Source: a bacterium (lineage in GTDB: Bacteria > UBA8248). From it: a stretch of 64,000 bases of DNA. Position numbers and translations under genes: made by a program. Positions within the stretch are counted from its first letter, which is position 1. Every line of letters begins with the position of its first letter. The notes below the pieces were generated by a model. The model was not told where the DNA came from and did no database searches. It was given only the letters and a program-made list of their open reading frames with translations. Shown one piece after another: positions 2,251-57,463 of the stretch. Location of the stretch: contig CBDBZY010000041.1 of the NCBI GenBank assembly GCA_965213685.1, positions 512,001-576,000 on the forward strand. The letters run 5' to 3'.

Positions 2251-3141
2251 TTACTCTAATGATCCTACCCACACTTGCTGGGAATACTCCCTAACACCCA
2301 CCTCCCCTCCAGCCACAAGCAGTTCACCAGAGGGGAGTACTGCACAAGAGGGAGCATACATTCCCACAGGAAGCTCTCCACACTTGCTCCATTTCTTCCC
2401 TTCTGCCTCATATCTGTAGAGCTCCTTTCTCCACCCCCACCCTCCTACCTCCCTCCCTCCTACAAGTAGCAAGTGGTTCTGCAGGGCTAAGAGTGTGGGG
2501 CCACCTACTGGAGGGGATGGCAGTTCCCGCCATGTTGGGCTAGTGGTGGTGTTGTGAGTTGCGTTTGCTATCAGGGTGGGGAGGTGGGCAGAGAACAAGT
2601 GAGGCCGACCATCTCTCCAGTAATATGATGAGATGTATACGTAATCACTAATGATGACTGCTGTCATCTGCTGACCCCCCATAGGCACTGGCTGTGCACT
2701 GTACCACAGGTGAGTGGAGCAGTCCAGGACTTCTACTGTGTCCTTGTAGTCACCACATGCCACAATGAGGTATTGCTGGTAGCCCACAGCAGCTGACCAT
2801 GCTCTACCAGTTGGCATTGTTGGGTAGTGCTGAGTATTCCAGCGATGACCCTCACTGTCCCATAATTGGATAGCAGTGCTGCCTCCATGACCACCAGCTA
2901 GTAATAGCTGGTCCTTGACTGATGCCATGGCAAACAAGTACTCAGTGCTCTCTGGCAGCTGAGACCACTCACCAGTGGTAGAGTTGTATTGCACTACATC
3001 ATACCAATTCACAGTCAACCCACTTGCAATGTGGACCTGTCCCTTCAGTAACGCAGTGTAGGCATACTTGACTCCAAAGGGCAAGTCCTTCCCTCTCCTC
3101 CATTTGAGTGGGAGGGGCCATCTCAGTGGCTGGACCTGGGG
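2251..3141 (-). CDS. Kelch beta-propeller terminal exon, copy A (open; no adjacent kinase exon)
   Basis: 891-nt phase-0 exon after a polypyrimidine tract and cag, PQVQPLRWP...VWVGSLE*. Six GG..Y/W Kelch-type repeats. Paralog of the terminal exon of the kinase genes. Confidence 0.85.
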   Translation of the reverse strand, partial: PQVQPLRWPLPLKWRRGKDLPFGVKYAYTALLKGQVHIASGLTVNWYDVVQYNSTTGEWSQLPESTEYLFAMASVKDQLLLAGGHGGSTAIQLWDSEGHRWNTQHYPTMPTGRAWSAAVGYQQYLIVACGDYKDTVEVLDCSTHLWYSAQPVPMGGQQMTAVIISDYVYISSYYWRDGRPHLFSAHLPTLIANATHNTTTSPTWRELPSPPVGGPTLLALQNHLLLVGGREVGGWGWRKELYRYEAEGKKWSKCGELPVGMYAPSCAVLPSGELLVAGGEVGVREYSQQVWVGSLE

Positions 3142-3522
3142 CTGTAATGAGGTGAATGATGCAGAGAGGGAGGGATGGAGGGAGGGAGGAAGGGAGGGAT
3201 GGAGGGAAGGAGGGAGGGAGGGGGGAGGGAGGGAAAAGAGAATAGGGAGAGGAAAAGATGATGGAGGGTTCAAGGGGAGAGGGGTGAAGGAGAGGAGGGG
3301 GTGCAGGGGTATTGGAATGGGGAGAGAATGAGAGTGAGGAGAGGGAAGGAAGTGGTGAGATAAAAATTATGTACAGTCATGTGCCTAATAATTAGTTCAT
3401 CTGATGTGTACATACACTGTGCACAGGTGTGGCATGGCTGGCTAGTATTGCTGGATCGAGGCAATATCTATAGCATGGCTTCCTGCTCCATCCTGTGCCA
3501 TTGCAATACACCTCTCTGTTAA

Positions 3523-4157
3523 GGTGGCGGTTCAACCTTTCGCAAACCAAACAGTTGTTATAAAAACATAGTCTCAGTGTCGTATCGTAAACACTTTTGT
3601 AACAATATTGGTACTGTTTTAAAGCTTGAAAACTGCTCTGTCTGATTATCTACTTTATAATTGTCCACAAAGCAGCACTAGGTTAATGGAGTCCACAAAA
3701 CTGGGCTCCATAAAAATCCAAATATCTGACTTGGGACAGTTAGCAAAAATATGAAAAAATACGCTTAATTACCCCACAACTGACCTGTTTGCGGCGGGCA
3801 TGATCGTGTATTTAGCGTGTAAGTACAAGGCAGGCGCGCTAAAAGTTTGTCCGTGCTACGCGCGGGGGTCGATTAAACTTGCCGTTTTGCGCACAATTTT
3901 GTAGATCTACCGCTCATGATGCGTCGCCGCAAAGGTCTACGAGAACTCATTCGAGTGCCGTTGGTTTGGATCCGCTCCAAAATTTCAGTCCCGAGATATT
4001 TAGCATCTACGTACTTCGGTACACTCTACACACACAAGTACGCATAACGGGCCTACCACTTCAAAGGCTGCACGTGTACACGAACTATGAATCTCATTAT
4101 AACGTACTCACAACGTAATACCCGTGTGCGCGTACTACCCAAGGTTGAACCGCCACC
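3523..4157. mobile_element. Non-autonomous TIR element with TTAA target duplication (Kolobok-like, GG termini)
   Basis: TTAA|ggtggcggttcaacctt ... aaggttgaaccgccacc|TTAA; no ORF. Confidence 0.75.
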
Positions 4158-4289
4158 TTAATTAACCTAACTCCCTCCTCCCTCCTTCTTTCACCCTCCC
4201 TCACTTCCCTCCATCCTTCCTTCATCCCTCCTTTATTAACTAATGGAATACATTGTAGTGAACAGATATCCTTGTAGTATTTACATGAC

Positions 4290-5369: not shown

Positions 5370-5400
5370 CTGGAGGAAAGGATTATCACTGTGAAATGTA

Positions 5401-7511: not shown

Positions 7512-10085
7512 TATAATTGCAAGGAACACTGTAGCAATGAGAGAATGAATGGGAGAAGAGAGGAGGAGATCTAGAGGAATGGGTCTAAATATTAATGTGG
7601 TAAGGTGGAATGGAGGGGAGAAGGAAGGAGAGAGACTAGGGAGGAGGAAGGGAGGTGGGGAAAGTTGGAGGAAGGGGAAGAGAGGGAGGTAACAGGGGAA
7701 GAGGAGGGAGGAAGGAAGAAGAGGAGGGAGGAAGGGAGAAGAGGAGGGAGAGAGGGGAGAGAGGAGGGAAGAAGAGGGAGGGGGGTGAGGGGAGGGGGAA
7801 GTAGGGGGGAGGGGAGGGAGAGGGAGGAGGGGAAGGGGAAGGGGAGGGAGAGGGGAAAGGGAGACAGGGGGGAGGGGAGGGAGAGGGAGGGAGGGAGGGG
7901 AAGGGGGAAGGGGGAAGGGGAGGGGGGAGGGAGACGGGGGAGGGGAAGTGAGGGGAGGAGAAACAAGGGGAGAAACAGTGGTATATACTAGCCAGGAGCT
8001 GACAAGGCACAAGGCAGGAGGAGCACAAGGAAAGGAGAAATAAAGGCAGAATGGAGGGACAGAGGGTAAGGAATAGGTCTTGATACATTATGCTGGCATA
8101 AATTTGAGAAAAATAGGTATATATAGTCAAAAGGATAGGGAAATAATTGGTGAGAATAATCGAAGGTTGTGTGAAAGTATAAAGTAATAAAACACTTTGG
8201 CACCACGTTTCATTGCCCCACCCACTGCATGCCACGCACACATACTGAGGCACACAGACTATCCAGTGTTGTGGGTAGATCAATTAATTAGTGTGCATTA
8301 TTAAGAGTGTGCAGTAATGGCGGACAGAGATTCGGACCAGCCAGGTTGTAGTCTAGTGGAGGCTATGGGGACCGTGGTCACTGTAGAAGCTGAAATCAGA
8401 ACTGATTTGGAGCTACAGAGTAGTTGTTTTTGCAGAATAATCAAAGCATAATCACAGTTTTAAGGAGAATAATAGACTAAGAATAGGGGAATAGAATAAT
8501 ATGTGGAAAAAAAGGCCTCAGTGAAAGAGTCAACGCAAGCTCTGCCTGAAGCAGGGAAAACGATTGATAGAGATACACTATATGAGTACACATGCATGAC
8601 ATATGGGTACACGTACATACATGCATGCACACATGTGCACTGTACAGTAGCTTGACCATGATGTGGCTGCCCTGCAGGAGTCTGCCAGCCTTCAGAGAGT
8701 GGTGCTCTCTACCTCACACTGTGCTCCATGCATGACATGATCGAGCCTTCTGCATTGGGGGGGAGAGAGGGAGAAGGCGAGGGAGGGAGAGAGGGAGAGA
8801 GGGAAGAAGAGGAAGGGAAGGAGGGAGGAAGGGAGACAAGGAGGGAGGGGAGGAGGGAAGAAGAGGGAGGGAAAGAGGAGGGAGGGCTAGTGCAGTGTAA
8901 GTAACCTCATTCCCAGGCTCTCCCCCTAGTGCACAGGTAAGATTTTTCGATTCTTGTACCCTAAAAGGTCATACGCGTGTGCTAGTGGGAGAGCCTGGGA
9001 ACGCGGCTGCAGTGTAAACAAGTAATACTCATACACATGGGACACAGTGGTAAGACAGGGACTGCGCATGCCTTGAAAAACACAGGATTGTATGCACCTG
9101 TGATACATGTACATGTAAATGTACATGGGTGGTGAGAGTTGGCGCACCATCAAAGCCCCATTCCCAACTCTCAAGGTTGGGCATGTGGACCATCTGCCTT
9201 TCATTCGGATTTATTCTTATATGTGAGGCTTGTTGTTTTGCTTTTTAAAATACAATGTACACTGTATATATATATATATATTTCTAAGCCGTTGAGGTTG
9301 TTGCAGACATAACTTTTTCTAAGCCGATGAGGTTGCTACATACATGTATTTCTAAGCCATTCAGGCTGTTCTCCAAATATTTTTCTAATATTTTACATGT
9401 TAGCTTCCACCTATCATTCTTGTTGCCAGGTAACTTCATCCTTCACCGCATCCTCTTCCTCATCTTCCAGATTGTTTTCTTGATCATCCCCTTCCTCCTC
9501 TTCTTCCTAGTTAACCTTCCTCCTCTTCCCCTCCTCCTCCTCTTCCAAATAATTATTAACCTTCCCTTTTCCTCCTCTGCCTCTTCTTCCTCCTCTTTCT
9601 TCTCCTCCTCCTCTTCCTAATAATTAATTAACCTCCTCCTTTTCTTCCCATTTCCTCCAGACTTCTCTCTCACTCACTCTTCCCCCTTCCTCTCTTTCAT
9701 ATCATTATATTACTGCTGTCTTCATCAGTCCTAACACGTAATGTCACAATCATTCTAATTGTCTGAACAAACTGCTTTTAAATAATCAAATTCTACAAAG
9801 ATCACAATGCATTAATAAGACAACACACATATCAGCTAGTGTAGGATGTTGGAATGAGTGTATAGAAATAATAATACATAATTATACATGATCACTTCAC
9901 TGTTCATACAAGGTGTTTTCTTTACTACAGCATACAACCTAACCTCATACTACAACACATGTTGTACAGTATACATGTAAACCAATAATATATTTATTTT
10001 AGCAAAATTAAGAGTATAAGCCAAAACACACAATAGCAGGTTGTAGGAGTCAAGTAACATGTAATGCATAGCAGCATACACGAAT

Positions 10086-10956
10086 TCACTGTAAATGAGA
10101 ATACCCTCCAACACTTTCCACAATCCCTCCAGCCACAAGCAGTTCACCAGAGGGGAGTACTGCACAAGAGGGAGCATCCATTCCCACAGGAAGCTCTCCA
10201 CACTTGCTCCATTTCTTCCCTTCTGCCTCATATCGGTAGAGCCCCACCCCTCCTACCAGTAGCAAGTAGTTCTGCAGGGCTAAGAGTGTGGGGCCACCTA
10301 CTGGAGGGGATGGTAGTTCTTGCCATGTTGGGCCAGTGGTGGTGTTGTGAGTTGCGTTTGATATCAGGGTGGGGAGGTGGGTGGAGAACACGTGAGGCTG
10401 ACCATCACTCCAGTGATATGATGAGATGTATACGCAATCACTAATGATGACTGCTGTCATGAGCTGAGCCCCCATAGGCATTGGCTGTGCCCTGCACCAC
10501 TAGTGAGTGGAGCAGTCCAGGACTTCTACTGTGTCTTTATTGTAGTGCCAACATGCCACAATGAGGTATTGCTGGTAGCCCACCGCAGCTGACCATGATC
10601 TACCAGTTGGCATTCTTGGGTAGTGCTGAGTATTCCAGCGATGACCCTCACTGTCCCATAATTGGATAGCAGTGCTGCCTCCTCCACCACCAGCTAGTAA
10701 TAGCTGGTCCTTGACTGATGCCATGGCAAACCTGCACACAGTGTTCTTTGGCAGCTGAGACCACTCACCAGTGGTAGAGTTGAATTGCACTACAACATAC
10801 TGATTGCTGCCCCCCACAGCAGACCCACCTCCAATGTGGACCTGTCCCTTCAGTATATAATGCAGTGTAGGCAAACTGGACTCCAAAGGGCAAGTCCTTT
10901 CCTCTCCGGATCCTCCATTTGAGTAGGAGGGGCCATCTTAGTGGCTGAACCTGGGG
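10086..10956 (-). pseudogene. Kelch terminal exon, copy B, disrupted
   Basis: Same acceptor and PQVQPLRWP start; frameshift near 10855, premature TAG at 10500-10502, 3' end truncated. Confidence 0.85.
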
Positions 10957-11334
10957 CTGTAATGAGGTGAATGATGCAGGGAGGGTGGGAGGGAAGGAGA
11001 AAAGGGAGGGAGGGAGGGAGGTAGGCATTGATACATTATGCTTTCTATTTTGCCTATTATGCTATTCCCGAATTCCCCCAAAATCTGCCTATTATGCTTC
11101 AGAACATTCTTATTATTCCCAGGAAGGTACCTATTATTCTTACAGTTACATTAATAATCCAGAATAGCTGGCAACCACTCGGTGATCTGAGCCATTCTGT
11201 AATTAAGCAAACAAACGCCTATTAAAAATATTGCCCGTTACGCGCACGCACTTTCATTTGCTACACTAACGTGACGCGGAAGATTACATATGTAGTGTAC
11301 ATAGTGCATATATAATAGTTATACGTCGAGTCCA

Positions 11335-11436: not shown

Positions 11437-11448
11437 ATTGGACGAGAC

Positions 11449-11491: not shown

Positions 11492-14452
11492 ACGAGACGT
11501 ACAACTAGTTTAGAGCACAGCATCGCGTGCTCGTACCTCGCACTTAGTAACAGGCGGTTACTACGGCTGAAATATTATCCTATTGGACGAAGCGCTTACC
11601 GGTTTAGAGCTGGGCATGCCGAGCTAGGCTCAGCCTAGTAACAGTTCGCTACGGCGTGCCTAGTAACCGCTAGTACGCTTGACCAGAGAGCGGTCTTGGG
11701 CGACGGTCTTGGGGGCGACTCGCGAGAGACTCGGAGCTGACAATGCACGCAGCGGTTGCTTTGTAAGCGGAGCTGATAGCAGTTTGATTTACATGTACGG
11801 TACACATGGCTATCGCTGTCTTTTGGAAAGTATCGGCTAGCTCCAGTAGCGGCTATCGAGGTAGCCTGGCATGCGCTGGTACGCGGTAACTACGCGGTTG
11901 CTATGTATGGACACTGGACGTGAGGGGAAGGTCTACGTGGCTTATAAGTGCCGCGGACATTTATAAGCCACGTCTCGTGGTTTATATGAGATTTATAAAC
12001 CACGCCCTGACCAATCAGATTACAGTATTCCGAGTAGCTGTGCTCTAAAATATTATAGTCTCATGCAAATCCCGTAATCCTCGAACTCACTGCACATGCA
12101 CATTGAGGGTAGTGTTAGCTGAAGGATACCGTATTATTCCCGAATTCCTGCCTATTATGCTCGCATTATTCTCAAATTCCCAGATGTACCTATTATGCTC
12201 AAAATTATACCGGCATAATGTATCAATGCCTAGAGGGAGGGAGGGAAGGAGGGGGGAGGGGGGAGGAAGACAGAAGGAGTGATGTAAGAATAGTGGCATG
12301 TAGGGAAGGTGAACTATCTATCAGCGTTTTGGCAACTAACTATCAGCGTTTTGGCAAAATAAAGTTAGGTGCATCTTTAATAGGTTCAACACTATATACT
12401 TGGAGGGAATAGCAAAAGCTCACCTGTATTAATAGCATATTGGGCAGGTTCAGGTGATAACTTACATGATATTGACTACAATCACAAGAGAGTGGGTGTT
12501 GTGCATTTTTTTTTGCATTACACAAAGCAATATTACAGGATGAGTCAACTAGTGTAGCAGTTGAGCATGTTTTTGTCTATGTTCTATGGAAAAAAGTGCA
12601 TCCATTTTGTGATTTTTTTGGAGTTTCAAGCAGTCGCGATCGGCTCTGATCTCTTTGAAACATCTTCAGTCAGAAATTGTTTGCCTGTACAAAGAATTGA
12701 TATAGCCTTGCAGCTCATGACCTTATCCCAGTTGATTTTGGGAGTATGAAGGAAACTGTATTCGTTTGTTCCCCATGCACATCCTGTTTATTATTACTTG
12801 TAGATCTACTGTTGTTTACAGTGGACTACAGCTAGTTTACTAATTATTACACAGTGTGTGCTTTATGAGAAAACTTTCCATCATTTTTAAAGTATATAAA
12901 TTGTTGTGTAATGACCTTACGACTTGTGCTCTTTTCTATCAAACTCCTTGTAAATACACCTACTGAGTTTTTTGTAACATGATCAGTCAGCACTCACCAC
13001 CCATACCTTTCTAACATCCTACTACACCTCCATTCACTTGTACAGCTTTCTTTCATGTGATGATCAAATAGTACAGGGACAGCTGTACTAATACACATGA
13101 TAGATACATAGGTAGCTACAAACATGGTTTTAGGCTACGCTAACACAGAAGTTGCACAATTAACGATTCAAAAGCAAAACCACAAAGCAAAGTATACAAT
13201 TCTCCAATTAAAGCAGCTTGAAGAATTTTACCAGAGCGAGATCTCCTTCTATAATTTTGTTGCTCCAGAAATTTCTAACTAACTCAACTCTCTCCTCCAG
13301 TTTGCTTTTCATCTTCCTCTTTTCAGTCTAGCGTGCCTCTGCAATATTTCTATAATGTCGAGCTAGTGTTAGAGCTTTATTCCTCTCCTTTCTAGTTCTT
13401 TCCTGCACCGTACCGCAGGTACTGTTGCTGACTTGCTGTTGCAGCTGCAGCCAGGTTTGTTTTCAGAGACTGAGTCACAACAGCATCAAGCAATAGTGGT
13501 GCAGTATCAGAGTCATTTTCCATATTTGGTCTTTGAGCATATAATACTGCCTTGCAATCCTGCTTGCCTCAATATTGCGACAAAGAGTTTCATTAGCTCT
13601 TGCTTCTCTAATTCTTGCATACTGTAGTTCTTGATCCTCATCTCTCTTCTTCCTTTCCTCTATTTCTTGCAGGTGAACCACACTAAATTTCACAGTACAT
13701 TCATGTTCAACCTTTGCCTTGAGGGACTGATTCTCCTGTGTCAGTTGTTGATTCTCCAGGACCAGTTGTGTGTTTTCTTCTCCACTGATGCAATCTGATC
13801 ATTCTTCTCCTGTTCTTTTGACTGCATTTCTCGTTGCAGTGTTCCAATCCTCATTTCTCTTCTTCCTTTCCTCTATTTCTTGCAGGTGAACCACACTAGA
13901 TTTCACAGTACGTTCATGTCAGCGTTGTTTTATGCCATCCAAAGTACCAGACTGCCAACTCTCCTTTTTAGATTTGTGTTTATTTAAATGATAATGCTTT
14001 CACCTATCTTTCTTTATTTGCAATGAACGATGTCCTCTGTGTGTCTGTAGAGAAATAATTATATCTATGTTAATAGTTACTGCAGATATGAGGTTAGACA
14101 TATGTAACTATACACATATATACTGCCTGCTGAATGCTGCCAAGTGGCAGGCCTCAAATCAGAAATGTGAATACACAAATATTTTGGGCTGACCCTTTTT
14201 TGTGTTGTAGTAGTACTATTAGTAGATCATAGGCTATTATTAGGTTGTGCTATTTTTGTATATTCCTATTTAGGTGTACTATATTTGTTGTAGTCTGGAA
14301 GTCTGCTGATTTAATACCAGTGTTTACAGTGTCACCTCAGAAATTGCTATCTTGTGGTTTGCATGCAGAGTACTGGTTTCCTGTTTGACTACTCAGCTGC
14401 ATTTGACAGGCTACTGATAAACATTTTAAGAGTACACAGAACTATGCCGCAT

Positions 14453-14582
<130 letters not shown>

Positions 14583-14627
14583 CCACACCTGCATACATAC
14601 GTGTACAAACATACGCGCATCACATAT

Positions 14628-20819: not shown

Positions 20820-21121
20820 AATAATTGTCGAACGCTCTCTGTGAGAAAATGAACAAACAAGGGCTAGTGATTTATTCTAGTCACGTGAGGAGGTGAATAC
20901 CAATAATTATGTTATAAATACCGATATCCAGGTAACCGCGTGCATATTGTTGTATGTATCACTGTGATATTCGTGTTCGTGTCACGGCTTTACAGCGCAG
21001 CGCTAGAGCCACACGTATTTCCGTGCACGCATGCGCGTCGTCTCATGGTGGTCCACTGAGGAGGTTCGTATGTAGATGTTATGGAACTGCAGCAGTTCAC
21101 TAGGGATTAGCCTGCATGAAC

Positions 21122-28965: not shown

Positions 28966-29922
28966 TTACTCTAATGATCCTACCCACACTTGCTGGGAAT
29001 ACCTCACAACACCCTCCACCCCTCTGGTCACAAGCAGTTCTTGCTGGGAATACCTCTCAACACCCTCCACCTCCCCTCCAGCTACAAGCAGTTCACCAGA
29101 GGGGAGTACTGCACAAGAGGGAGCATACATTCTCACAGGAAGCTCACCACACTTGCTCCATTTTTTCTCTTCTTCCTCATATCTGTAGAGCTCCTTTCTC
29201 TTCTCTGACCCTCCTACCTCCCTCCCTCCTACCAGTAGCAAGTGGTTCTGCAGGGCTAAGAGTGTGGGGCCACCTACTGGAGGGGATGGCAGTTCCTGCC
29301 ATGTTGGGTCAGTGATGGTGTTGCGAGTTGCATTTGATATCAGGGCGGGGAGGTGGGCGGAGAACACGTGAGGCTGACCATCTCTCCAGACATATGATGA
29401 GATGTATACGTAATCACTAATGATGACTGCTGTCATGTGCTGACCCCTCACAGGAACTGGCTGTGCACTGTACCACTGGCGAGTGGAGCAGTCCAGGACT
29501 TCTACTGTGTCCTTGTAGGGGAACCCACATGCCACAATGAGGTATTGCTGGTAGCCCACAGCAGCTGACCATGCTCTACCAGTGGGCATTCTTGGGTAGT
29601 GCTGAGTATTCCAAGGATGACCCTCACTGTCCCATAATTGGATAACAGTGCTGCCTTCCCAACCACCAGCTAGTAATAGCTGGTCCTTGACTGATGCCAT
29701 GGCAAACCAGCACACTGTGCTCTCTGGCAGCTGAGACCACTCACCAGTGGTAGAGTTGTATTGCACTACGACATACTCATTGCTGCCCCGCTCAGCATTC
29801 CCACTCCCAATGTGGACCTGTCCCTTCAGTAATGTAGTTTGGGCAAAGCGGATTCCAAAGGGTAAGTCCTTTCCTCTCCTCCATTTGAGTGGGAGGGGCC
29901 ATCTCAGTGGCTGGACCTGGGG
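28966..29922 (-). CDS. Kelch terminal exon, copy D (open; in-frame C-terminal duplication; no adjacent kinase exon)
   Basis: 957-nt phase-0 exon, open from PQVQPLRWP to VWVGSLE*; ELLV...YSQQ occurs twice. Confidence 0.85.
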   Translation of the reverse strand, partial: PQVQPLRWPLPLKWRRGKDLPFGIRFAQTTLLKGQVHIGSGNAERGSNEYVVVQYNSTTGEWSQLPESTVCWFAMASVKDQLLLAGGWEGSTVIQLWDSEGHPWNTQHYPRMPTGRAWSAAVGYQQYLIVACGFPYKDTVEVLDCSTRQWYSAQPVPVRGQHMTAVIISDYVYISSYVWRDGQPHVFSAHLPALISNATRNTITDPTWQELPSPPVGGPTLLALQNHLLLVGGREVGGSEKRKELYRYEEEEKKWSKCGELPVRMYAPSCAVLPSGELLVAGGEVEGVERYSQQELLVTRGVEGVVRYSQQVWVGSLE

Positions 29923-47955: not shown

Positions 47956-50900
47956 TTACTCTAATGATCCTACCCACACTTGCTGGGAATATCCCACAAC
48001 ACCCACCACATACCCTCCAGCCACAAGCAGTTCACCAGAGGGGAGTACTGCACAAGAGGGAGCAGCGATTTCCGCAGGAAGCTCTCCACCCTTGCTCCAT
48101 TTCTTCCCTTCTGCCTCATATCTGTAGAGCTCCTTTCTCATCCCCTTCCCTCCTACCAGTAGCAAGTGGTTCTGCAGGGCTAAGAGTGTGGGGCCACATA
48201 CTGGAGGGGATGGCAGTTCCTGCCATGTTGGGCCAGTGGTGGTGTTGCGAGTTGCGTTTGATATCAGGGTGGGGAGGTGGGCGGAGAACACGTGAGGCTG
48301 ACCACCACTCCAGTTATATGATGAGATGTATACATAGTCATTAATGATGACTGCTGTCATGCGGTCACCCCCCACAGGCACTGGCTGTGCACTGTACCAC
48401 TGGTGAGTGGAGCAGTCCAGGACTTCTACTGTGTCCTTGTAGAGGTACCCACATGACACAATGAGGTATTGCTGGTAGCCCACAGCAGCTGAGAATGGTC
48501 TACCAGTTGGCATTCTTGGGTAGTGCTGAGTATTCCAGCGATGACCCTCACTGTCCCATAATTGGATAGCAGTGCTGCCTCCCAAACCACCAGCTAGTAA
48601 TAGCTGGTCCTTGGCTGATGCCATGGAAAAGCAGCGTTCAGTGCTCTTTGGCAGCTGAGACCACTCACCAGTGGTAGAGTTGTATTGCACTATGACATAC
48701 TGATTGCTGCTCTCCTCAGCATACCCACCTCCAATGTGGATCTGTCCCTTCAGTAATGTAGTTTGGGCACACCGGACTCCAAAGGGCAAGTCCTTTCCTC
48801 TCCTCCATTTGAGTGGGAGGGGCCATCTCAGTGGCTGGACCTGGGGCTGTAATGAGGTGAATGATGCAGGGAGGGAGGGAGGGAGAGAGAGAGAGAGAGA
48901 GAAGGAGGGGGGAGGGGGAAGGGGGGAGGAGGGAGGGAGAGGGAGGAAGACAGAAGGAATGATGTAAGAACAGTGGCATGGAGGGAAGGTGAAAGAGAGT
49001 AGAAGTGAGGAAAGGAATAATTAATTTTGTTATACTTTGATCTCGACACAATTCTTTTGATATATCCCTTTAGCTCCAAGTGTGTGCTGCATGCTACCGC
49101 TGTGGAGGGAGCCACGCCGCCAGGGACTGCCGGTACCGTGACAGCATTTGTAACTTCTGTCACAAGAAGGGGTACATTCAACATGTGTGCAAAACTCGCC
49201 TCCGCCAACAGCGGCAGTCAGCACCCGAGCAGACTCCGCCGCTGCAGGTGGGAGGCCAACAGCAGCATCACACCCACAAAGTTGATAGCAAGGCCCCGCC
49301 TACAACCACATCTGCCTCATCAACACCTCCTGCACAGCCTTGGACAGTGGACTGCAACATGTTCTTGGTGGAGGCAGACAGAGTGGCATCTGTCAAAGCC
49401 ACAGTTACTACTGATGGTGCCCAGCTGCAGATGGATGTTGACACTGGTGCTGCACTCTTCCTCATCAGCAAAGCCACATACTCCAAGCTGTGGCCAGCTG
49501 GCCGAGGCCCCCAGCTAATAAAACCTGCTATCAGACTCCAGACATACACAGGGGAGGAACTAAAGCTTGTTGGGGAGGCATCCGGTTGGGTCCAATACCA
49601 GAGCCAACAGAAGGACCTCAGCCTTGTGGTGGTGAAAGGAACGGGCCCCAGCCTCCTAGGCCGTGATTGGCTGAGCAAGGTCCGGCTAAACTAGGCCAAA
49701 ATCCACTCACTGACTACACCACACACACCACCTTAGACCAGGTGCTCACCAAGCACAGTGGCCTGTTCAAGGCGGAGCTTGGCACGATCAAGGGTGTTGC
49801 CGCCAAGTTGCACATCAACCATGATGCCAACCTTGTTTTTACTGCCCCTGCTCTGTCCTGTATGCACTCCGATTAGTGTAGTTATAGTTAACTATAACTA
49901 AAACTAAAATATATTTTAGTAGCATCAAAACAACTATTGTAGCAAAACTAGAACTAGAATTTACAGTTTGCTGGAATTGGTGTAACTAAATCTAGAATCG
50001 TTATAACCTTCCGCAAGAAAACTAAAACTAAAATTATTGTACCAGTAGATACTAGTATCGTCCGCGCATTAAGCGCGCGCGCACCCGAAATCGAAGATGT
50101 CATTATAGCGCACGTGATCTGCCTCGTGCACTCAACTCATGATCATTTGTGCAGTATAGTATATCATACACGAAGTTGCAAGCCAGTGAACTGAGTTCCG
50201 AGCACGGGTATTAGGCAAGTATAGGGATCTAGCACGTGTTTGAGAATGTTGTCGTCTGACTCCGAGTCCGAAGGTGCCGGTGTGGCAGCTACCCCCGTAT
50301 CCTCACGAAGCTTCAGTACATCTCCTTCTCCATCTACAAGTGGAAGAGGTTCTGTTGGGCGTCCTCGCAAAAGCTTAGTGTGGGACTATTTCACGTACGA
50401 TTTCAGCAGCAACAAGAGTATATGTCAAGTTAGTTCCGAGTCTCACAGTGATGCTGAAGCCACGAGTCCCATCAGTGTTTGTGGCCATCGTATTACCGGT
50501 AAATTCACCACAAACTTAAGGAGTCATCTGAAGAAAAGCCACACAAATTGCTATAAAGAATTAGTGACAAAAGAAGAGAGTGCAAAGGAGGAGGAATTGA
50601 GAGGGAAGACTAAAGCTGACAAGGGACGTGCTGGGCCTGTGAAGCAATCGACATTGATGGAAGTCATGCAACGAAAGTATGACAAGACCAGCAGTCGGTG
50701 GCAAGACATTACACGCAAGATGGCCATGTTTATTGCCACTAGTAATGTCCCTAATGCAGTTGTGGAGAATGCTGAATTTCGGCTTTTGATGGAAACCTTG
50801 GATCCTCGCTATCAAACACCAAGTCGAGCAAGGATGGCAAAAGAAATGGATCTACTGATGGCTGATATGAAGGGTAGAATCAAGGTTTTCCTTGACTCCG

Positions 50901-53900
50901 CACAGAAGGTATCTGCGTGTACAGATATCTGGACAAAGCGTGGCATGACATCATCGTACCTTGGAGTGACCGCCCATTTCTTTTCCAGACATGATCATCG
51001 ACGTCACTGTGTGACACTTGCAGTACGTGTCTTTCCTCATCCCCATACAGCTGACAGAATTCGAAGTTTGTTAGACGAAGTCCTCAAGGAATGGGATGTT
51101 GACCAGAAGTTCTATTTTGTCATCACAGACAGCGGAAGTAATATGGTCAAAGCTTTTCGGAGTGATGTATTGGCATCTATCACAGATTACAGTGAAGGGT
51201 CAATGGATGAAGATGTTGGTGAAGCGAACAGTGGTGATGATGCAGAAGATGAAGATGAAGATTTTGATGTGGATGAGGATAATGACTTTGACACCAAAGA
51301 AATGCAACATGACATAGTATTTTCACAGTGTGGCAAGCGACTTGCTTGTTTTGCTCATAGCCTTCAGCTAGTTGTCCAGAAGTTCAAAGATGATTCACTT
51401 AAACCTCTCATGAAGAAGGTTTACGCTCTTGTTAAGAAAGTCAACAAGTCATCAAGAGCTACAGGAATTCTGTTGTCCTTGTGTAACAAAAAGCTGGTTA
51501 CCAATGTTCCAACTCGATGGAGCTCAACATTTCTGTTGTTAGATCGGCTACTTGATGTGAAGGGTCCACTAAGCACTGCTTTGGATCAGCTAGAGTGGGA
51601 CAATCTGGCTCACAGTGAGTGGAAAACTATCGAGATGGTACACAAGCTATTGAAGCCCTTTGCACAGTATACTGCTCTAATATCAGGAGAAGAGTATACA
51701 ACTCTGTCAAGTGTCATTCCTATCCTGATGGAGCTGCAACTGCACCTACAGGATATGGTGCAAGTCCCAGAAGTTGCTTCAGTAGCCACCACTCTACGAT
51801 CAGAGTTGAATCGACGATTTCGTAAGTACACAGATCCTGGAGATGAAGATTTTGAGCCAATCTATGTTGTGTCCACCCTCCTCGATCCACGGTACAAACC
51901 ACTGATCAATGCAGTACAGATGAAATCAGGAAAAGATGAACTGCTAAGAATGCTCAAAGTCAATGACTTAGACAGCCAAAGCTCAAGTCAGTCTTCTCCC
52001 ATCCAGTCTTCTCCCACCCCCTTACCCGAAGAAGAAAGTCCAGTCAAGAAACGTCAACGTTTCAGCTACCTGTCGAAAGTTCTTGAGGAAAAGTTGCGAC
52101 AAGGAAAAGAGAAAGCAGCTCGTGAGCCTCATGGAAAACAAGAGCTTGAACGATACTTAGACAGCGTGCCTTCCCTTGGTGATGATGATGACCCTCTGGT
52201 TTTTTGGGTGGAACAGAAGGATGCGTATCCATTACTTTCTACCCTGGCTGCAGATATCATGTGTGCCCCTGCATCATCAGCTGCTGTGGAGCGAATATTT
52301 TCAACAGCCGGGGAAGCCACAACTGGAAAACGCAATAAGTTAACTCACAAGAACCTTGAACGAGAAGTTCTGATCCGTAGAAACAAAGAATATATGTATA
52401 CTTAATGTTTGTGGCTACTGTGTATTACATGCATTCATGCATTTTTTATATGAATATTTCTGTTTTTTGTTGTAATAACCGAACCTTTCCATTCAGTAAT
52501 TAAATAGTTCTCATGTTTAGAAGTATCTGGGAGTAAATTGATTCATTATGAAATTACTTGAACTAAAAGTAGAACTTACCTCAGTTTTAGTAAGTAGCAC
52601 CACAACTAAAATTGAATGCTCCTGATTTACTAAAGCTAAAACTAAAAATTCAAGCATTAGCTAAGAAATACCAAAACTAAAACTAAAATGACATTGAAAT
52701 GCTAATGTGTTACTGCAACTAAAACCAAATAAAAGCAACTAACTAAAACAACACTAACTCCGATCAAGGGTCAATCAAGCCCTGGAGAGGCTGGAGGCAG
52801 CTGGCGTCATCGAGCTATTGCTTTTTCTGAGTGGGCAGCACCCATTGTTCTGGTTGTCAAATGTGATGGTTCCATATGAGTTTGTGGCTACTACAAACTG
52901 AATCAGGCTGCACACATTGATGCTTACCCCCTTCCCCTTGTGGATGATCTGTTTGCCTCTCTGGCTGGGGGACAAGTGTTCAGCAAGCTAGACCTTGCCC
53001 ATGCGTATCAACAACTGCACGTCGACAAAGAGTCCCGCCAGTATGTCGCAATCAACACTCAAAAGGGGTTATTCCAATACATCCGTCTACCTTTTGGAGT
53101 GGCTGCTGCACCAGCCATTTTTCAGTGCACTATCGAGTTGATTCTGAGAGGACTCCCTCACGTGTGCGTGTATCTTGATGACATATTGGTGACAGGAGAG
53201 TCAAAGGCAGCACACATCCGCAACTTAAGTGCTGTACTGGAACGTCTGGAGTCTGTGGGTGTTCACCTTAAACGTGAGAAGTGCGCATTCATGCTCCTAG
53301 AGGTCAAGTACCTTGGTCATCGGATATCTGCGAAAGGACTCCAATAGGCCCTGGCACAATTTGCTCGAAAATTTGCCCAAATGTCTTTTCTTTTTTTCCC
53401 ACATCTCTTCCCTAAATTTCCCACAGATCATCCTATATTTTCTGACCTAGTGGTGAACTCTCCATCACACATAAGACAAACATCATACATATATACATTG
53501 TAAAAAGTGAAAAATATGATACTTTATTCATTATTGTTGCACTGCATCATTACTGAAAGTTCTTCCATGGCAAATTCCTGGCTAGTGTAAAACCTGTTGT
53601 TTGAAAGGAAGAATTGTAAATGCACACGTGAGTAGTTGATGAGTCATCTAGTTGATACTTGGTGTGTACAGAGAAAACAGTAAGGACCAATCCTTGCTGA
53701 AAATTTCTTCAGTTTTTACTGAAACTTCCCAGCAAGGTAGCGCATATATCTTGATTGCTAGAGCCTACCCATTTTTCCAAAAAATGCCAAGCAATTTGTG
53801 CCAGGGCCTAGACTTCAACCCCTGGCAAGCAAGGTCAGGGAGGGCATCCTGGCATCTGCCAAATGAAGAGGCTGCATGGCACAAGGGTACATGTATGTCT

Positions 53901-56900
53901 GGTGGCCAGGGATGGACAATGGAGTTAGCCGTGAGGCATTGTGCCAAGTGCCAAGAGCACCAGAAACTCCCGCCTAAAGCCCCAATGCACCCCTGGGAGT
54001 GGCCAGACCGTCCTTGGGCCTGTGTACACATTGACTATGCTGGGCCCATCCAGGGGAAGATGATTCTGGTGATGGTGGACACTCACTCTAAGCGGCCAGA
54101 GGCACTCTTAGTATCCTCAGCCACTTCTCAGTCCACAATCGAGAAGCTAAGGATAGTCTTTGTCACACACGGTTTACCGGAGGTGTTGGTCTGACAATGG
54201 GCCAGCTTTCACAAGTATGGAGTTCCGGCTACCTTCACTGAATCCAATGGAATTAAACACCTCACGAGTCCCCCACACCATCCGGCCTCGAATGGATTAG
54301 CTGAGAGGGCAGTCTAGACAATCAAGACAGCCATCAGGAAAGGTGATAGAGGAGTCAACCTGGAAACCCAGATATCGAGGTTCCTTTTCCAATATTGCCT
54401 AACACCATATTCCACCACAGGTGCAACCCCTGCGGAGTTGTTGATGGGAAGACAGCTTCACTCGAGACTAGACCTGCTACATCCAGACGTGTCATGTCGA
54501 GTTTGTGCTAATCAAGAAAGACAGAAAACGCACCATGACCTTCACTCCTGCCAATGAACCTTCGACGTTGGTGACCCAGTTTCAGTAAAGAACCAGGGAA
54601 CTGGCCCACCGTGGCTACCAGGGAAGAGCAGCGAAGTTGTCAGTCCACAGCGCTTCATTGTGCAACTGGCTGATGGTCGTTGTACTGACCGCCATGTTGA
54701 CCATGTGAAACGGCGAGTTCTCCAGCCTGAGGGCTGATATGGACATTAGCCAGCCAGACCAGTACACACTGGATGATGATGATCCTCAGTCGAATGTGCC
54801 AGACAACTGTCTGCATACTGGTGTGACTCCTACCTGGCAGCCCCCAGGGAGTGAAGCCTCAACAGAGCTACGTAGATCAACTTGTGACCGTCACCCTCCC
54901 TCTCCCCAATCGTCTTATGTGAACTGGACAGTTATGTATGTTGGCTCTAAAACCATTGTATTAGCACCGTGTATGTGTCATTTAGGAGAGAGGAGACATG
55001 GTATCTTTCATATCACTATGTCATATGTAAATTGTGCATTGTGTATTGCGTGATTACTTGTGGTTGCTTAATTGTATCGTCCCTTAAGTCTATTCATTGC
55101 TCTGTACATTTTGTCAGTCCATGTATCAGTTGAGTAGCTTACACAGAGTGAGGCTCGGTCTACCCAATACAGGACTAGTAGTAGCCGTGGTGTTTAGTTC
55201 GTTTGTAGGACCAGTGTGAGGATGAACTCCCTAGGTCACTACAGGGCACTCTGCATGTTTCACCACCACACCCAAACTTAGCTAGTTGAAAACAGTCTCT
55301 ACATGCTTCAGTTTAGTTTTGATGCTATTTTAGTCACCACTAGCAAGCCCCGTTGAACGTTGTGAGTATATATCCCTGTACACACATCGTGCCAAAGGAA
55401 TGTTTGGAATGTCATTACTACTTGTACATACACATAGGCATAACATACACAGGCTTTTTCATGGAGGGTACAGTGGCTAAAATGCCATCGAAACTAAACA
55501 GAACCACTGTTTTCAACAGGTTACCATCGGGGCAAACTGGTGGTGAACTTGTCTGCTATACATTCTTGATGGCACACATGACCATAATAATTTGACCTTT
55601 TGACCCTGTCGAACCACCTCTGGGGTGGAATGAGGAGGAGTAGAGGGTGAGAGGGAGAGAGGGAGAACAGGAGAATAGCTACAGCTCACAGATCTTGGTG
55701 TGGCTGGAGATGTCTTGTACACTGCAGAATTCTTGCTTGCCTAATAAGGGCAATAAAGAAGTGGACAAAAGAAGAGAATGAATGCTAATCTGCTTTGTCC
55801 TCCTTTCCTCTCTTCCTTGCTTTGTTCCTCTTTGCTTTCCCTCACTATCTTTTGCACTTGGAGCATTACCTGCACATCAGCTTGCAGTGGTCCTTGAGGG
55901 GTCATCTGAGAGTCACCTTTTGGGCTGGGACTGGGCCTAGGGGGAGTCTGGAAGAGACAGGTTTGCTGCGTTTAGTTCACTTCAGTTTAGAGAATTACTA
56001 AGAATTAAGATACTGCGTAAGAGAATTAAAGATACTGTGTAAGAGAATTAAGATACTACATTTAGTTCATTTCAAGAGGACCACTAATTACTACATGAAC
56101 TGAGCGATATGTGCCAATCCTGTCTGCTTCCTAAAGTTGATACTGAGGAGTCCATTACTGGAATCGATACCTCATGACTACAATAGGGAGTTGAATCTCC
56201 TATACTTAGTATTACATGTATAATCATTCATGCAGACATACACATTATTATGCCATTGCTCACCAACACTTGCTTCCTAAGCCGTTCAACCTCTGCCTTT
56301 AAAGACTGATTCTCCTGTGTCATTCGATGGTTCTCCTGTGTCAGTCGATGATTCTCCTGTGTCAGTTGACGAATCTCTTGTTTGTTTATCTTCTCCACTG
56401 ATGCAATCTGATCATTCTTCTCCTGTCCTTGTGACTGCATTTGCTGTTGCAGTGCTCTGATGTGCTGGTTCTTGGAGAGAATCTGCAGCTCATGTGACTG
56501 AATCTGCTGGTTTTGCTCCTTCACTGTCTGCACCAACACCAATCTGTCCATGTGACATTCTGCATCACTGATCTCACCCCTGGCCCGCTCCAGTAGCTGC
56601 ACAACCTGATGGATTGAGGGCCGATCCTCCGGAAAGCTTTTGAGGCATCGCTTGATCATCTGCACAAGAGGATGGCCATCACAGAACTGTCTGTAGATCT
56701 TTTGCATGTACTCCGCTCGCCGCTCCAGCTCATCTCGAATAACCTGCCTTCGGTGCTCATCTCGGTACACTTGTGCCAGAACCTTATGGGGGAAGCATTG
56801 TGTGAGGGTGAAAATGGCCACCACACCCAGTGAGAAGATGTCGATTGTCATGTCGTATCGAGACTCATCTTCCAGTGCCTCTGGGGGCATGTAGATGGAC

Positions 56901-57463
56901 GCACCAGGTGCTTTGGTCATGGTGGCTACCCTCAGGCTGGGGACAATCCTAGCCACCCCAAGGTCAGCAATTTTGGCTGTCATGGCGGAGTTCAAGAGAA
57001 CGTTCCTCGCGGAAAGGTCCCGATGGATCAACGGCGGAGAACGACTGTGCAGGTAGCAGAGACCTTGAGCGACGTCGTAGAGGAACGAGTGCTTGAGGCC
57101 CAGGGGGATATCGGGCCGAGTCTCCAGTAGGTCGTGGAGGCTGGTCAGCAGTCGCTCCATCACCAGCGCAGGAAGCCGCGAGCCCGGCAGCACGCAGATG
57201 CCGAGAAAGAGGACGATGTGTGGGTGGCGGAGGGTGCTCATGAGTCGGCACTCCTCAACGAACTGGCCTGCCGCCCTCTCCATCTCAGCCTGCGGTATTT
57301 CGGAGCGGTCTTGGAAGATGTCGTGGATCTTCTTGATGGTGCAAACCGCTCCAGGTATCTCCCCCTCCTCCACGCTGCCGTAGGCTCCTGAGCCGATTCT
57401 TGTGCCAGTTAGTCGCACGTTTTGAAGCTGAAACGCCCTGAGCTCGCGAAGGAGATTCGCCAT
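47956..57463 (-). CDS. TKL-type kinase - coiled coil - Kelch protein, copy 2 (4 exons, 745 aa)
   Basis: Exons 57463-56264, 55965-55870, 55740-55690 and 48846-47956 (Kelch E), all phase 0 and open. Intron 3 is expanded to 6.8 kb by nested transposons. Confidence 0.83.
49874..52756 (+). mobile_element. Apparently autonomous hAT transposon inserted in the Gypsy pol
   Basis: Perfect 8-bp TSD actccgat; TIR tagtgtagttatagtta / taactaaaacaacacta; aaactaaaa subterminal repeats. Confidence 0.95.
50246..52405 (+). CDS. hAT transposase (BED zinc finger, DDE, C-terminal dimerisation domain), 719 aa
   Basis: SLVWDYF..C..C..NLRSHL...H, TDIWT, ITDSGSNM, CFAHSLQL, TRWSS, PASSAAVERIFS; uninterrupted. Confidence 0.95.
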   Translation: MLSSDSESEGAGVAATPVSSRSFSTSPSPSTSGRGSVGRPRKSLVWDYFTYDFSSNKSICQVSSESHSDAEATSPISVCGHRITGKFTTNLRSHLKKSHTNCYKELVTKEESAKEEELRGKTKADKGRAGPVKQSTLMEVMQRKYDKTSSRWQDITRKMAMFIATSNVPNAVVENAEFRLLMETLDPRYQTPSRARMAKEMDLLMADMKGRIKVFLDSAQKVSACTDIWTKRGMTSSYLGVTAHFFSRHDHRRHCVTLAVRVFPHPHTADRIRSLLDEVLKEWDVDQKFYFVITDSGSNMVKAFRSDVLASITDYSEGSMDEDVGEANSGDDAEDEDEDFDVDEDNDFDTKEMQHDIVFSQCGKRLACFAHSLQLVVQKFKDDSLKPLMKKVYALVKKVNKSSRATGILLSLCNKKLVTNVPTRWSSTFLLLDRLLDVKGPLSTALDQLEWDNLAHSEWKTIEMVHKLLKPFAQYTALISGEEYTTLSSVIPILMELQLHLQDMVQVPEVASVATTLRSELNRRFRKYTDPGDEDFEPIYVVSTLLDPRYKPLINAVQMKSGKDELLRMLKVNDLDSQSSSQSSPIQSSPTPLPEEESPVKKRQRFSYLSKVLEEKLRQGKEKAAREPHGKQELERYLDSVPSLGDDDDPLVFWVEQKDAYPLLSTLAADIMCAPASSAAVERIFSTAGEATTGKRNKLTHKNLEREVLIRRNKEYMYT
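53345..53810. mobile_element. hAT-type MITE in the Gypsy pol
   Basis: gactccaa|taggccctggcaca ... tgtgccagggccta|gacttcaa; same family as 58287-59243. Confidence 0.85.

Follow-up and report, generated by a model that had tools for sequence, protein, structure and literature searches.

The window analyzed here, by which we mean the whole 64-kb stretch of DNA, carries five Kelch exons, all on the minus strand; two belong to complete genes (C and E), two are Kelch-only (A and D) and one is a pseudogene (B). The sequence-only reading had placed five Kelch frames at 2251 (A), 10086 (B), 17841 (C), 28966 (D) and 47956 (E), and these positions hold as the lower coordinates of minus-strand frames. 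It had also described the locus as an array of kinase-coiled coil-Kelch genes, which is correct for C and E, both complete four-exon genes, but not for A and D or for the pseudogene B. The features are as follows.

2251..3141, minus strand: Kelch exon A, intact, 296 codons plus stop; its acceptor (ttacag) is conserved, and a kinase exon is absent upstream
10003..11017, minus strand: Kelch exon B, now a pseudogene: frame shifted near codon 31, one in-frame stop, part of the blade 5 loop deleted and the final codons missing
13705..13848, minus strand: coiled-coil remnant of a kinase exon, 145 nt, 97% identical to gene C, upstream of B
17841..18731, minus strand: gene C exon 4, six-blade Kelch propeller, 296 codons plus stop
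19192..19242, minus strand: gene C exon 3, 17-codon linker, phase 0
19383..19460, minus strand: gene C exon 2, 26-codon Pro/Ser-rich linker, phase 0, 97-100% identical across the four complete genes
19662..20819, minus strand: gene C exon 1, with start codon, kinase (residues 1 to ~315) and coiled coil (~316-386)
28966..29922, minus strand: Kelch exon D, 318 codons, frame intact; 22 codons of blade 6 are duplicated internally, and a kinase exon is absent upstream
47956..48846, minus strand: gene E exon 4, Kelch propeller, 296 codons plus stop
49074..53347, plus strand: transposon debris in gene E intron 3
49074-49694, plus strand: retroviral-type aspartyl protease in gene E intron 3
50225-52405, plus strand: hAT transposase frame of 726 aa in gene E intron 3
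52880-53347, plus strand: reverse transcriptase in gene E intron 3
55690..55740, minus strand: gene E exon 3 (linker)
55870..55947, minus strand: gene E exon 2 (linker)
56264..57463, minus strand: gene E exon 1, kinase and coiled coil, 400 codons

The contig that contains the window derives from a metagenome bin. A bacterial origin of the window was rejected because its GC content is 46%, as against 65% in most contigs, and because it holds spliced genes and eukaryotic transposons; the 64 kb are eukaryotic host DNA, probably from a sponge, lying inside a bacterial genome bin. The array reaches past the window, the contig as a whole carrying 12 Kelch exons (nine intact, three broken) and five kinase exons (four intact, one broken), and seven or eight of the Kelch exons have no kinase exon. 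Within the window a kinase exon is present only for C and E. Searches by tblastn (E ≤ 10) and sensitive blastn recovered no kinase remnant upstream of A or D; the only fragment found was the 145-nt piece of coiled coil upstream of B, which indicates that B was formerly a complete gene. Exon A is 99% identical to a copy elsewhere on the contig (K386). Twenty further frames of at least 150 aa near the orphan exons matched either transposon families or nothing in Pfam. The Kelch-only exons (A, D and others) are best explained by duplications that start in a CT-rich tract of the last intron, and the array as a whole is best explained as one section of a tandem family whose growth and decay are due to birth and death of genes.

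In C and E the kinase and coiled coil are followed by two small linker exons and then the six-blade Kelch domain. The predicted four-exon model is in phase 0, and its splice sites, including the AG and GT of exon 3, are conserved in all four complete genes on the contig. The earlier proposal that the proteins run from kinase through coiled coil to Kelch without a signal peptide or membrane segment was confirmed on the gene models, and the best explanation is that the family encodes cytosolic proteins of ~725 residues with a short Pro/Ser/Thr linker.

Pfam detects a Pkinase domain in the upstream frames at 19590-20876 and 56228-57514 (E = 5e-37 and 2e-36, respectively), and GxGxxG (GSGAYG), the catalytic Lys (AIKK), HRD (HRDLSARN), DLG and PPE are kept in all four intact kinase copies, a motif set with which the enzyme is apparently active. 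The kinase exon evolves under constraint (omega 0.20-0.36; dS 0.10-0.15). The two kinase domains of the window had been called nearly identical; with 16 nonsynonymous differences (dN 0.023) they are better described as similar. The solved sequences matching the kinase at E ≤ 1e-20, seven in all, are each EGFR, CTR1, TNNI3K or TYK2, with TK (EGFR, TYK2) and TKL (CTR1, TNNI3K) matches mixed at similar scores; HRDLSARN is of TK/TKL type. The N-terminal kinase carries all catalytic motifs and may be of tyrosine-kinase-like type. An OSR1/SPAK (STE20 group) identity was considered and set aside, as no OSR1 is among the seven solved matches and the C-terminal domain is Kelch, not CCT.

Folded as two copies, the coiled coil scored 0.53 (best of three controls, 0.00), a mark that, among proteins of solved structure, 21 of 30 same-chain pairs reached and none of 23 single chains did, with the caveat that coiled coils resemble solved ones and that the pass may reflect likeness and not binding. 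The dimer runs showed at least 89% contact agreement and a partner pLDDT of at least 85, and the contacts between the two chains, which are in register, show heptad periodicity. The best explanation of these predictions is a coiled coil that dimerises in parallel.

Exons A, C, D and E score above the curated Pfam cut-offs for Kelch_1, Kelch_6 and Kelch_2, and a profile search matches solved Kelch domains with E-values down to 7e-27. An AlphaFold2 model (pLDDT 94.3, pTM 0.92) has 24 strands in six blades with closure by the N-terminal strand, and the top Foldseek matches are the Kelch domains of NS1-BP, Keap1, KLHL proteins and LZTR1 (probability 1.00, TM 0.69-0.76). The domain belongs to the Kelch-repeat beta-propeller superfamily. 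Pfam scans found neither BTB nor BACK in the upstream exons and the 20 further frames, and neither NACHT nor NB-ARC in any exon or neighboring frame scanned, which places the family outside the NLRs.

Differences between the copies are concentrated on one face of this propeller. The alignment of the nine intact copies spans 320 codon columns, 186 of them invariant (the shared framework noted in the sequence-only reading), 35 variable only synonymously and 99 variable in residue; 40 columns with at least three residues are grouped as short patches. Each of the patches listed earlier, beginning with VKY/VQF/VLC/IRF/VRC, agrees with the translations, and their placement was likewise upheld: they occupy the D-A loops, which precede strand A, and the B-C loops, which follow the GG doublet, on a single face of the propeller. 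We assigned faces by strand topology, not model coordinates. On that basis all 19 sites with a posterior above 0.9 lie in D-A/B-C loops or adjoining strand ends and none in A-B/C-D loops, while at P > 0.95 selected codons account for 13 of 104 in strict top loops versus 3 of 190 elsewhere (Fisher p = 1.6e-4). The same pattern is seen in homologs: the 30 positions of highest entropy include 21 in top loops and two in bottom loops among 46 close homologs, and 25 and none, respectively, among 72 distant ones. In both sets the most variable positions coincide with the selected ones, with up to 14 (close) and 19 (distant) residues per position, and the framework is also kept in the distant homologs. 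Among the selected sites F, R, D, W, C and Y are over-represented, a hot-spot chemistry. The ligand pocket face of Keap1 is built from D-A and B-C loops (PMC12314335), the very loops in which the sponge copies differ.

That the patches are under positive selection is indicated by several kinds of test. A single omega (M0) was rejected against M2a (lnL -2932.3 versus -2783.4; our M0 likelihood equals the iqtree2 GY+F3X4 value of -2932.29), so the clustering in patches is far beyond chance. The M1a/M2a comparison gave 2dlnL 191.9 (p2 0.095, omega 11.9), and M7 versus M8, which had been suggested as a site test on the paralogs, gave 189.6 (M8a/M8, 188.0) with omega above 1 at the patches; in these models ~10% of codons have an omega of about 11-12. 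Furthermore, we found that: (i) the M1a/M2a signal remained, at 122.7, when gap-adjacent columns were removed; (ii) three segments analyzed with their own trees gave 26.6, 46.4 and 55.2; (iii) with loop classes preset from DSSP, omega was 2.48 in top loops, 0.66 in bottom loops and 0.77 in strands, and omega_top = 1 was rejected (2dlnL 41.9); (iv) sites chosen from the distant homologs alone had an omega of 8.9 (2dlnL 174) and (v) in a tree-free count, the sites defined from distant homologs had a dN of 0.473 versus a dS of 0.207, with dN above dS in 28 of 28 pairs (2 of 28 at other sites). Counted in the same way over the whole top-loop class, the ratio is only ~1.1 and dN exceeds dS in 18 of 28 pairs. 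A genome_contigs search found no relatives with either a protein or an alignment query, and all DNA-level tests therefore rest on nine intact copies from one contig. It is well supported that about 27-30 codons, in two small patches per blade, have been driven apart between paralogs with an omega of about 9-12.

The synonymous rates bear on whether this signal could have a mutational origin. Synonymous divergence is similar in top loops and elsewhere (dS 0.116 versus 0.099), Kelch dS (0.075-0.165) is close to kinase dS, a comparison that had also been proposed, and the divergence of the 3' flank (0.107) is about that of both; the signal is thus not a mutation artefact. At the hypervariable codons, dS is 0.207 versus 0.086 elsewhere, a 2.4-fold excess by which some local mutation or conversion input is possible. 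Exchange among the copies, by gene conversion or recombination, occurs: PHI was 0.148 versus 0.304 in permuted data (p 0.001) and segment trees disagree. Recombination can inflate site-model tests, and it is with this caveat that we regard the family as being under diversifying selection on its binding surface; the suggestion of such selection was borne out in that omega exceeds 1 at the binding-face patches while Kelch dS is as in the kinase exon. Two outcomes named earlier as counting against the proposal, a dN/dS of 1 or less in the patches and variable residues spread over both faces, were not observed.

Relatives of these genes point to a family of the sponge lineage. The homolog P0010 has the same domain order in a single frame of 582 aa on an 1825-nt contig, and a Halichondria panicea RefSeq protein (XP_064407301.1, 774 aa) is collinear with gene C, with 39% identity over the kinase and coiled coil and 33% over the Kelch domain. 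The name of this record, 'serine/threonine-protein kinase OSR1-like isoform X3', is automatic, and the record carries no data on variability, an array or function. In the ESM Atlas there are three Pkinase+Kelch_1 clusters (50, 64 and 73 members) in which Porifera is the commonest phylum; the cluster records likewise carry nothing on these three points. Judged from such matches, the kinase-Kelch architecture is Porifera-wide. The kinase exon alone matches 2126 protein clusters at E ≤ 1e-60. We had considered a comparison of Kelch and kinase cluster counts (46 versus ~21 at 70% identity or more) as a test for many Kelch domains per kinase, but dropped it, as clusters were built at 90% identity and contig labels are cluster labels, so that the two figures are not on the same footing. 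Short Logan contigs were also rejected as transcript evidence, given that one of them (P0059) opens with translated intron sequence and is genomic. Our literature search found no paper describing a sponge kinase-Kelch family. In Pita et al. 2018 (PMC6208332), a 'Kelch motif containing gene' is listed as down-regulated after microbial-pattern challenge in two sponges.

The explanation we favor, if only by somewhat more than even confidence, is that this is a tandem sponge family in which a constant kinase-coiled coil module is joined to a Kelch face that diversifies between paralogs, the paralogs together forming a germline repertoire directed against non-self. The variable face would bind protein ligands, each paralog contributing one of a set of binding specificities on a constant signaling module, and ligand engagement of the dimer may alter kinase activity. 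An arms race with non-self, be it microbes, symbionts, viruses or mobile elements, would keep the face changing. It is in this sense that we infer an immune function.

A quite different scenario, which we think rather unlikely, is that the kinases are targeted to endogenous substrates, with each Kelch face recruiting a different host protein and new functions arising after duplication with no arms race. The Kelch top faces of Keap1, KLHL3, KLHL12 and LZTR1, the best structural matches, do bind endogenous partners, and a conserved, apparently active kinase and a family as large as the 2126 clusters imply are both in keeping with such a role. However, an omega of 9-12 that persists at identical positions across close as well as distant subfamilies exceeds what single shifts of specificity would leave, and families that turn over quickly and leave pseudogenes are more typically those driven by conflict. 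It could also be argued that there is no adaptive diversification at all and that decay under relaxed constraint is at work, with gene conversion, misaligned loop indels or assembly error mimicking selection. Whole-exon dN/dS is about 0.9-1.3, three of 12 copies are broken, recombination is significant, and a metagenome bin is the source of the contig. The framework has a high omega (0.5 by NG86, 0.66-0.77 by ML), and a branch test for purifying selection on it gave no significant departure from 1 on terminal branches, with 0.67 for the orphans (p 0.17) and 0.78 for the complete genes (p 0.47). Neutral decay would nevertheless scatter changes, whereas those observed lie on one face, and the signal persists without gap-adjacent columns, in segment trees and tree-free. 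Nine of 12 Kelch frames are intact at ~10% neutral divergence, the kinase exon is constrained and the framework is kept in distant homologs, all of which makes this account very improbable.

Allorecognition had been raised earlier alongside immunity, the idea being that the variable face separates self from conspecific non-self in the manner of the het-d/het-e WD-repeat faces. There is a formal likeness to the Podospora anserina het-d/het-e/NWD family of NLR-type proteins with hypervariable WD40 propellers: in that family each WD repeat has four residues of the interaction surface under positive diversifying selection, and loci exchange repeats with one another (PMC1805685). Both are multigene families with a propeller surface selected at a few positions per blade and a framework homogenised by exchange, and the sponge copies are mosaic as well. 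The differences are that the Podospora proteins have WD40 rather than Kelch repeats and a NACHT plus an effector domain rather than a kinase, and that variability there lies between repeats and alleles, whereas in the sponge family it lies between paralogous whole propellers. Against a role in allorecognition are the absence of a signal peptide or membrane segment and the comparison of near-identical copies from other assemblies, which may or may not be alleles: E and P0011 show 12 differences, two at selected sites, and K367/P0024 and D/P0052 show three each, none at selected sites. Since such copies differ at few, scattered sites, the diversity seen lies between paralogs and not alleles, and in view of these three pairs we consider an allorecognition receptor disfavored and very improbable.

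Other known systems offer partial parallels. The six-blade fold is common to the sponge proteins, the BTB-Kelch adaptors (Keap1, KLHL2/3/12/20, NS1-BP) and LZTR1, but the sponge proteins lack BTB/BACK, share 14-20% identity with them and have a kinase, not a cullin adaptor, as partner module; the human Kelch adaptors are single conserved genes, while the sponge copies form diversifying arrays. Coupling of a kinase to a C-terminal interaction or sensor propeller is found in LRRK2 (WD40) and mycobacterial PknD (NHL), although these have other propeller types and are single genes, PknD being a membrane protein, and we know of no hypervariable face for either. Plant F-box-Kelch and nematode F-box and MATH-BTB proteins are large, fast-turnover families with a positively selected substrate-binding domain and a conserved constant module; that module recruits a ubiquitin ligase, in contrast to the kinase and dimerising coiled coil of the sponge family.

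There is also the question of the surplus Kelch-only exons. All of them keep an intact frame and a conserved acceptor, each comes with a stop and a 3' flank of its own, and most lie downstream of a kinase-coiled coil gene on the same strand. It is conceivable, though we doubt it, that they are a cassette library and not debris, used in alternative 3' splicing or as gene-conversion donors. A few constant kinase-coiled coil-linker exons could be spliced to alternative 3' Kelch exons, much as in Drosophila lola and mod(mdg4), where constant exons are joined to many alternative 3' exons. Alternatively, orphan exons could donate sequence into an expressed copy through gene conversion, as chicken pseudo-V genes do. 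If true, a few promoters would suffice for a sponge to assemble a combinatorial set of intracellular receptors, and, were the Kelch-only exons so used, diversification of receptors by cassettes would be shown in an early-branching animal.

Sponges are filterers of seawater, and many of them host dense communities of microbes; to our knowledge, little is known of how they recognize particular microbes inside the cell. Their known expanded receptor families are the NLRs and the scavenger-receptor (SRCR) proteins, beside which the kinase-Kelch family may be a third kind. If our favored reading is correct, these proteins would be a candidate class of intracellular receptors, encoded in the germline and signaling directly through phosphorylation, and they would represent a solution to recognition that is independent of LRR, WD40 and immunoglobulin scaffolds. 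The residues and genes defined here are offered for testing the specificity of sponge-microbe interactions.

The five Kelch exons picked out by the sequence-only reading (A to E, with lower coordinates 2251, 10086, 17841, 28966 and 47956) were all recovered on the minus strand, and every variable patch listed for them agreed with our translations. Pfam detected a Kelch domain in four of them (A, C, D and E), and in the frames at 19590-20876 and 56228-57514 it detected a protein kinase. Kelch B is broken, having suffered a frameshift and an in-frame stop and lost its last codons, and Kelch D contains a 22-codon internal tandem duplication that takes in strand B6 together with the hypervariable loop of blade 6 (EVEGVERYSQQ, then ELLVTRG, then VEGVVRYSQQ), the duplicated copies of the loop being unlike each other. 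Gene C is made up of four coding exons, every one in phase 0.

28966-29922, minus strand: Kelch D, carrying the blade 6 internal duplication
19662-20819, minus strand: gene C exon 1, 386 codons, kinase and coiled coil
19383-19460, minus strand: gene C exon 2, Pro/Ser/Thr-rich linker (with exon 3)
19192-19242, minus strand: gene C exon 3, Pro/Ser/Thr-rich linker (with exon 2)
17841-18731, minus strand: gene C exon 4, Kelch domain

The linker exons and their AG/GT sites are kept in all four complete genes on C41, the contig whose positions 512001-576000 make up the window. The gene C product has 725 residues and an N-terminus that is not signal-like; no membrane segment is predicted in it, since its sole strongly hydrophobic 19-residue stretch is a kinase core strand with charged residues. 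The same kinase-to-Kelch order occurs within one polypeptide in P0010, a relative from the public protein library (a single 582-aa frame on a 1825-nt contig), and among more distant relatives, ~4.4-kb contigs carry single frames of full length (734 and 758 aa). A Halichondria panicea RefSeq model (XP_064407301.1) likewise has this order in one polypeptide and is collinear with gene C, with 39% identity in exon 1 and 33% in exon 4.

The assembly is classed as prokaryotic, and GC is ~65% in most of its 71 contigs but 46% in C41 (588,777 nt), one of several long contigs at 43-53% GC, including C64 (1.6 Mb), C18 (0.8 Mb), C41 itself (0.59 Mb), C16, C51 and C7. Besides spliced genes, the window contains a hAT transposase, a pogo-like DDE tail and fragments of reverse transcriptase and aspartyl protease. 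It is accordingly DNA of a eukaryotic host that was binned with a bacterium; the long low-GC contigs are host contamination of the bin. That host is very probably a sponge: public sequencing runs in which parts of gene C occur bear the label 'sponge metagenome', the demosponge Halichondria panicea supplies the nearest named relative, and Porifera predominate among Atlas clusters with both domains. The hAT frame, which may mark a recently active element, is flanked by the retroelement protease and reverse-transcriptase fragments, all within intron 3 of gene E.

50225-52405, plus strand: uninterrupted 726-aa hAT transposase frame inside gene E intron 3 (dimerisation domain E 6.5e-18)
5779-6906, minus strand: 375-aa frame lying between Kelch A and B; its C-terminal part matches DDE_1 (pogo/Tigger-type) weakly and is followed by a long Lys/Glu-rich tail

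The kinase is conserved (omega 0.20-0.36) and, with its catalytic motifs whole in all four intact copies, probably active. Its closest solved kinases are EGFR, CTR1, TNNI3K and TYK2, which makes it TK/TKL in type; on the same grounds we rejected the OSR1 identity given by the automatic name of the Halichondria relative. The coiled coil is predicted to dimerise. Two-copy folding of residues 305-386 scored 0.53 against 0.00 for the best of three controls, a mark attained by 21 of 30 proteins solved as one-chain pairs and by none of 23 solved as single chains. Contact agreement between runs was at least 89%, partner pLDDT was at least 85 and contacts were in register with 3-4 spacing; the models support a putative parallel dimer, with the reservation that resemblance to solved coiled coils may be enough for a coiled coil to pass. 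Paralogs may differ in the length of this segment. In genes C, E and 375/367 (a complete gene elsewhere on C41) this segment differs by indels of repeated LTQEN-type units and a 6-residue block, and its last ~25 residues are conserved (19662-19880 and 56264-56520 in the window).

In propellers of this kind the D-A and B-C loops lie on one face (here the top) and the A-B and C-D loops on the opposite face (the bottom). An AlphaFold2 model of the Kelch exon (75-sequence alignment; pLDDT 94.3, pTM 0.92) comprises six blades and 24 strands, blade 6 being closed by the N-terminal strand. In Foldseek it is best matched by Kelch domains from NS1-BP, Keap1, KLHL proteins and LZTR1, and a profile search concurs. 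Loops were assigned from DSSP strand order, and faces from propeller topology. Across the nine intact Kelch copies on C41 (320 codon columns), 186 columns are invariant, 35 show synonymous variation only and 99 differ in residue; the 40 with at least three residues are grouped as short patches.

One face of the Kelch domain is under strong diversifying selection. We used our own GY94/F3x4 likelihood program, whose M0 agrees with an iqtree2 run given identical data and tree (lnL -2932.29, tree length 1.165); all DNA-level tests rest on one contig. For the Kelch paralogs M0 omega was 1.33, and M2a was preferred over M1a (2dlnL 191.9) with omega 11.9 at 9.5% of codons, as was M8 over M7 (189.6) and M8a (188.0). 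Every one of the 19 sites with M2a posterior >0.9 falls in a D-A or B-C loop or at the end of strand A4 or B4 next to one, and the loops of the other face have none; each blade contributes 1-2 residues just before strand A and 1-3 after the GG doublet. With DSSP loop classes fixed beforehand, omega was 2.48 for the 104 top-loop codons, 0.66 for bottom loops and 0.77 for strands, and omega_top = 1 was rejected (2dlnL 41.9). Tree-free NG86 estimates were dN 0.125 and dS 0.116 in top loops (dN>dS in 18 of 28 pairs) versus 0.048 and 0.099 outside them (1 of 28). As the top-loop class is about neutral on average, the dN excess must sit in a subset of its codons.

The positions selected in the paralogs are also the most variable in 46 close and 72 distant homologs: (i) entropy at selected sites was 2.54 bits (close) and 3.06 (distant) versus 0.40 and 1.09 elsewhere; (ii) as many as 14 and 19 residue types occur at a single position; and (iii) top loops account for 21 and 25 of the top 30 entropy positions, bottom loops for 2 and 0. 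F, R, D, W, C and Y are enriched at selected sites. Furthermore, the 30 highest-entropy positions chosen from the distant set only (27 usable) gave omega 8.9 in the C41 paralogs (2dlnL 174), with dN 0.473 and dS 0.207 by NG86 and dN>dS in 28 of 28 pairs (2 of 28 at the remaining sites).

Several observations count against a reading by selection. Recombination is significant (PHI 0.148 vs 0.304, p 0.001), one of 28 pairs comes through a corrected tract test for it and segment trees disagree; dS at hypervariable codons is 2.4x that elsewhere; and on terminal branches no difference of framework omega from 1 was detectable, as neutral decay of the copies would have it. Against these stand a 2dlnL of 122.7 after dropping gap-adjacent columns and values of 26.6, 46.4 and 55.2 for three segments each on its own tree. 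Kelch dS (0.075-0.165) is similar to kinase dS (0.10-0.15) and to 3' flank divergence (median 0.107). We consider neutral decay less likely than diversifying selection. Allorecognition is likewise a less likely function for the variable face: proteins of other assemblies that are nearly identical to E, K367 (a further Kelch exon on C41) and D depart from them at 12, 3 and 3 residues, with 2, 0 and 0 of these at selected sites (an L-to-M difference at position 20 of the K367 pair, a gene-caller start artefact, was left out), and judged from these sequences the diversity seen is between paralogs. The main rival is that the Kelch face targets endogenous substrates. In Keap1 the D-A and B-C loops make the Nrf2 pocket (PMC12314335), and these are the loop classes that vary in the sponge Kelch. 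We favor, as the more probable reading, that this face would bind changing non-self targets.

The family is large. Among candidates scored for the Kelch exon, 343 are relatives at E<=1e-3 (~46 of them 70-85% identical); the kinase exon has 2126 at E<=1e-60 and P0010 has 162 representatives at E<=1e-30, many of 620-810 aa and matched over both domains; sources were ENA, JGI, Logan and one RefSeq sponge genome. Two giant predicted proteins in the public library, P0161 (3507 aa) and P0242 (6976 aa), match the kinase-Kelch query in 11 and 15 separate places; they probably arose where gene prediction in other assemblies ran tandem arrays together. Of 120 listed kinase-exon clusters, 11 share one longest-contig value (219,616 nt), a hint that another assembly contains a related subfamily in dense tandem array. 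Three far more distant kinase-Kelch genes (~25-41% identity), found by tblastn in the same host DNA, indicate that the architecture is old and has several subfamilies.

C41:348481-350544, plus strand: distant kinase-Kelch gene
C7:152332-154854, minus strand: distant kinase-Kelch gene, head to head with the next
C7:161588-163892, plus strand: distant kinase-Kelch gene, head to head with the preceding

The family turns over by duplication, exchange and decay. In a tblastn search of the assembly, C41 carries 12 close Kelch exons, nine intact (K117 is truncated with a stop, K407 frameshifted, and B broken), and five kinase exons, four intact (kin13 is frameshifted), with two coiled-coil remnants of 130-145 nt. 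Its complete genes are E, C, 375/367 and C', a copy of the gene C segment. Window 1-22500 and C41:385000-411148 form a recent segmental duplication: gene C and its flanks match C41:405793-410472 at 98.2% over 4.7 kb aligned, the adjoining 681 nt up to 411148 match at 99.4%, the coiled-coil remnant recurs at C41:403004-403130, and Kelch A and K386 are 99% identical. Kelch B, once part of a complete gene given the coiled-coil remnant upstream of it, has no counterpart in the other copy. The last intron of gene C terminates in a CT-rich (CCCTCC-like) tract of ~430 nt (18740-19170); one lies upstream of every Kelch exon, and similar tracts give hundreds of blastn matches over host contigs. In the Kelch-only units A, D, K386, K449, K246 and K583 homology is confined to the stretch from the tract interior to 150-430 nt beyond the stop, and upstream of A and D no kinase remnant was found even at E<=10. 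Because these duplications start inside the tract, it may be a breakpoint for unequal exchange. Our boldest reading, to which we give a low probability, is that the Kelch-only exons would serve as alternative 3' exons or as conversion donors.

In the full-text literature searched, no account of a kinase-Kelch family in sponges came up. There is close precedent for the principle in the fungal het-d/het-e WD40 family (PMC1805685); the sponge family would thus be a known principle on a new scaffold and a new signalling module. Our working model is that the variable Kelch face would bind ligands, that the kinase would read out this binding and that the repertoire of paralogs may answer to changing non-self targets.
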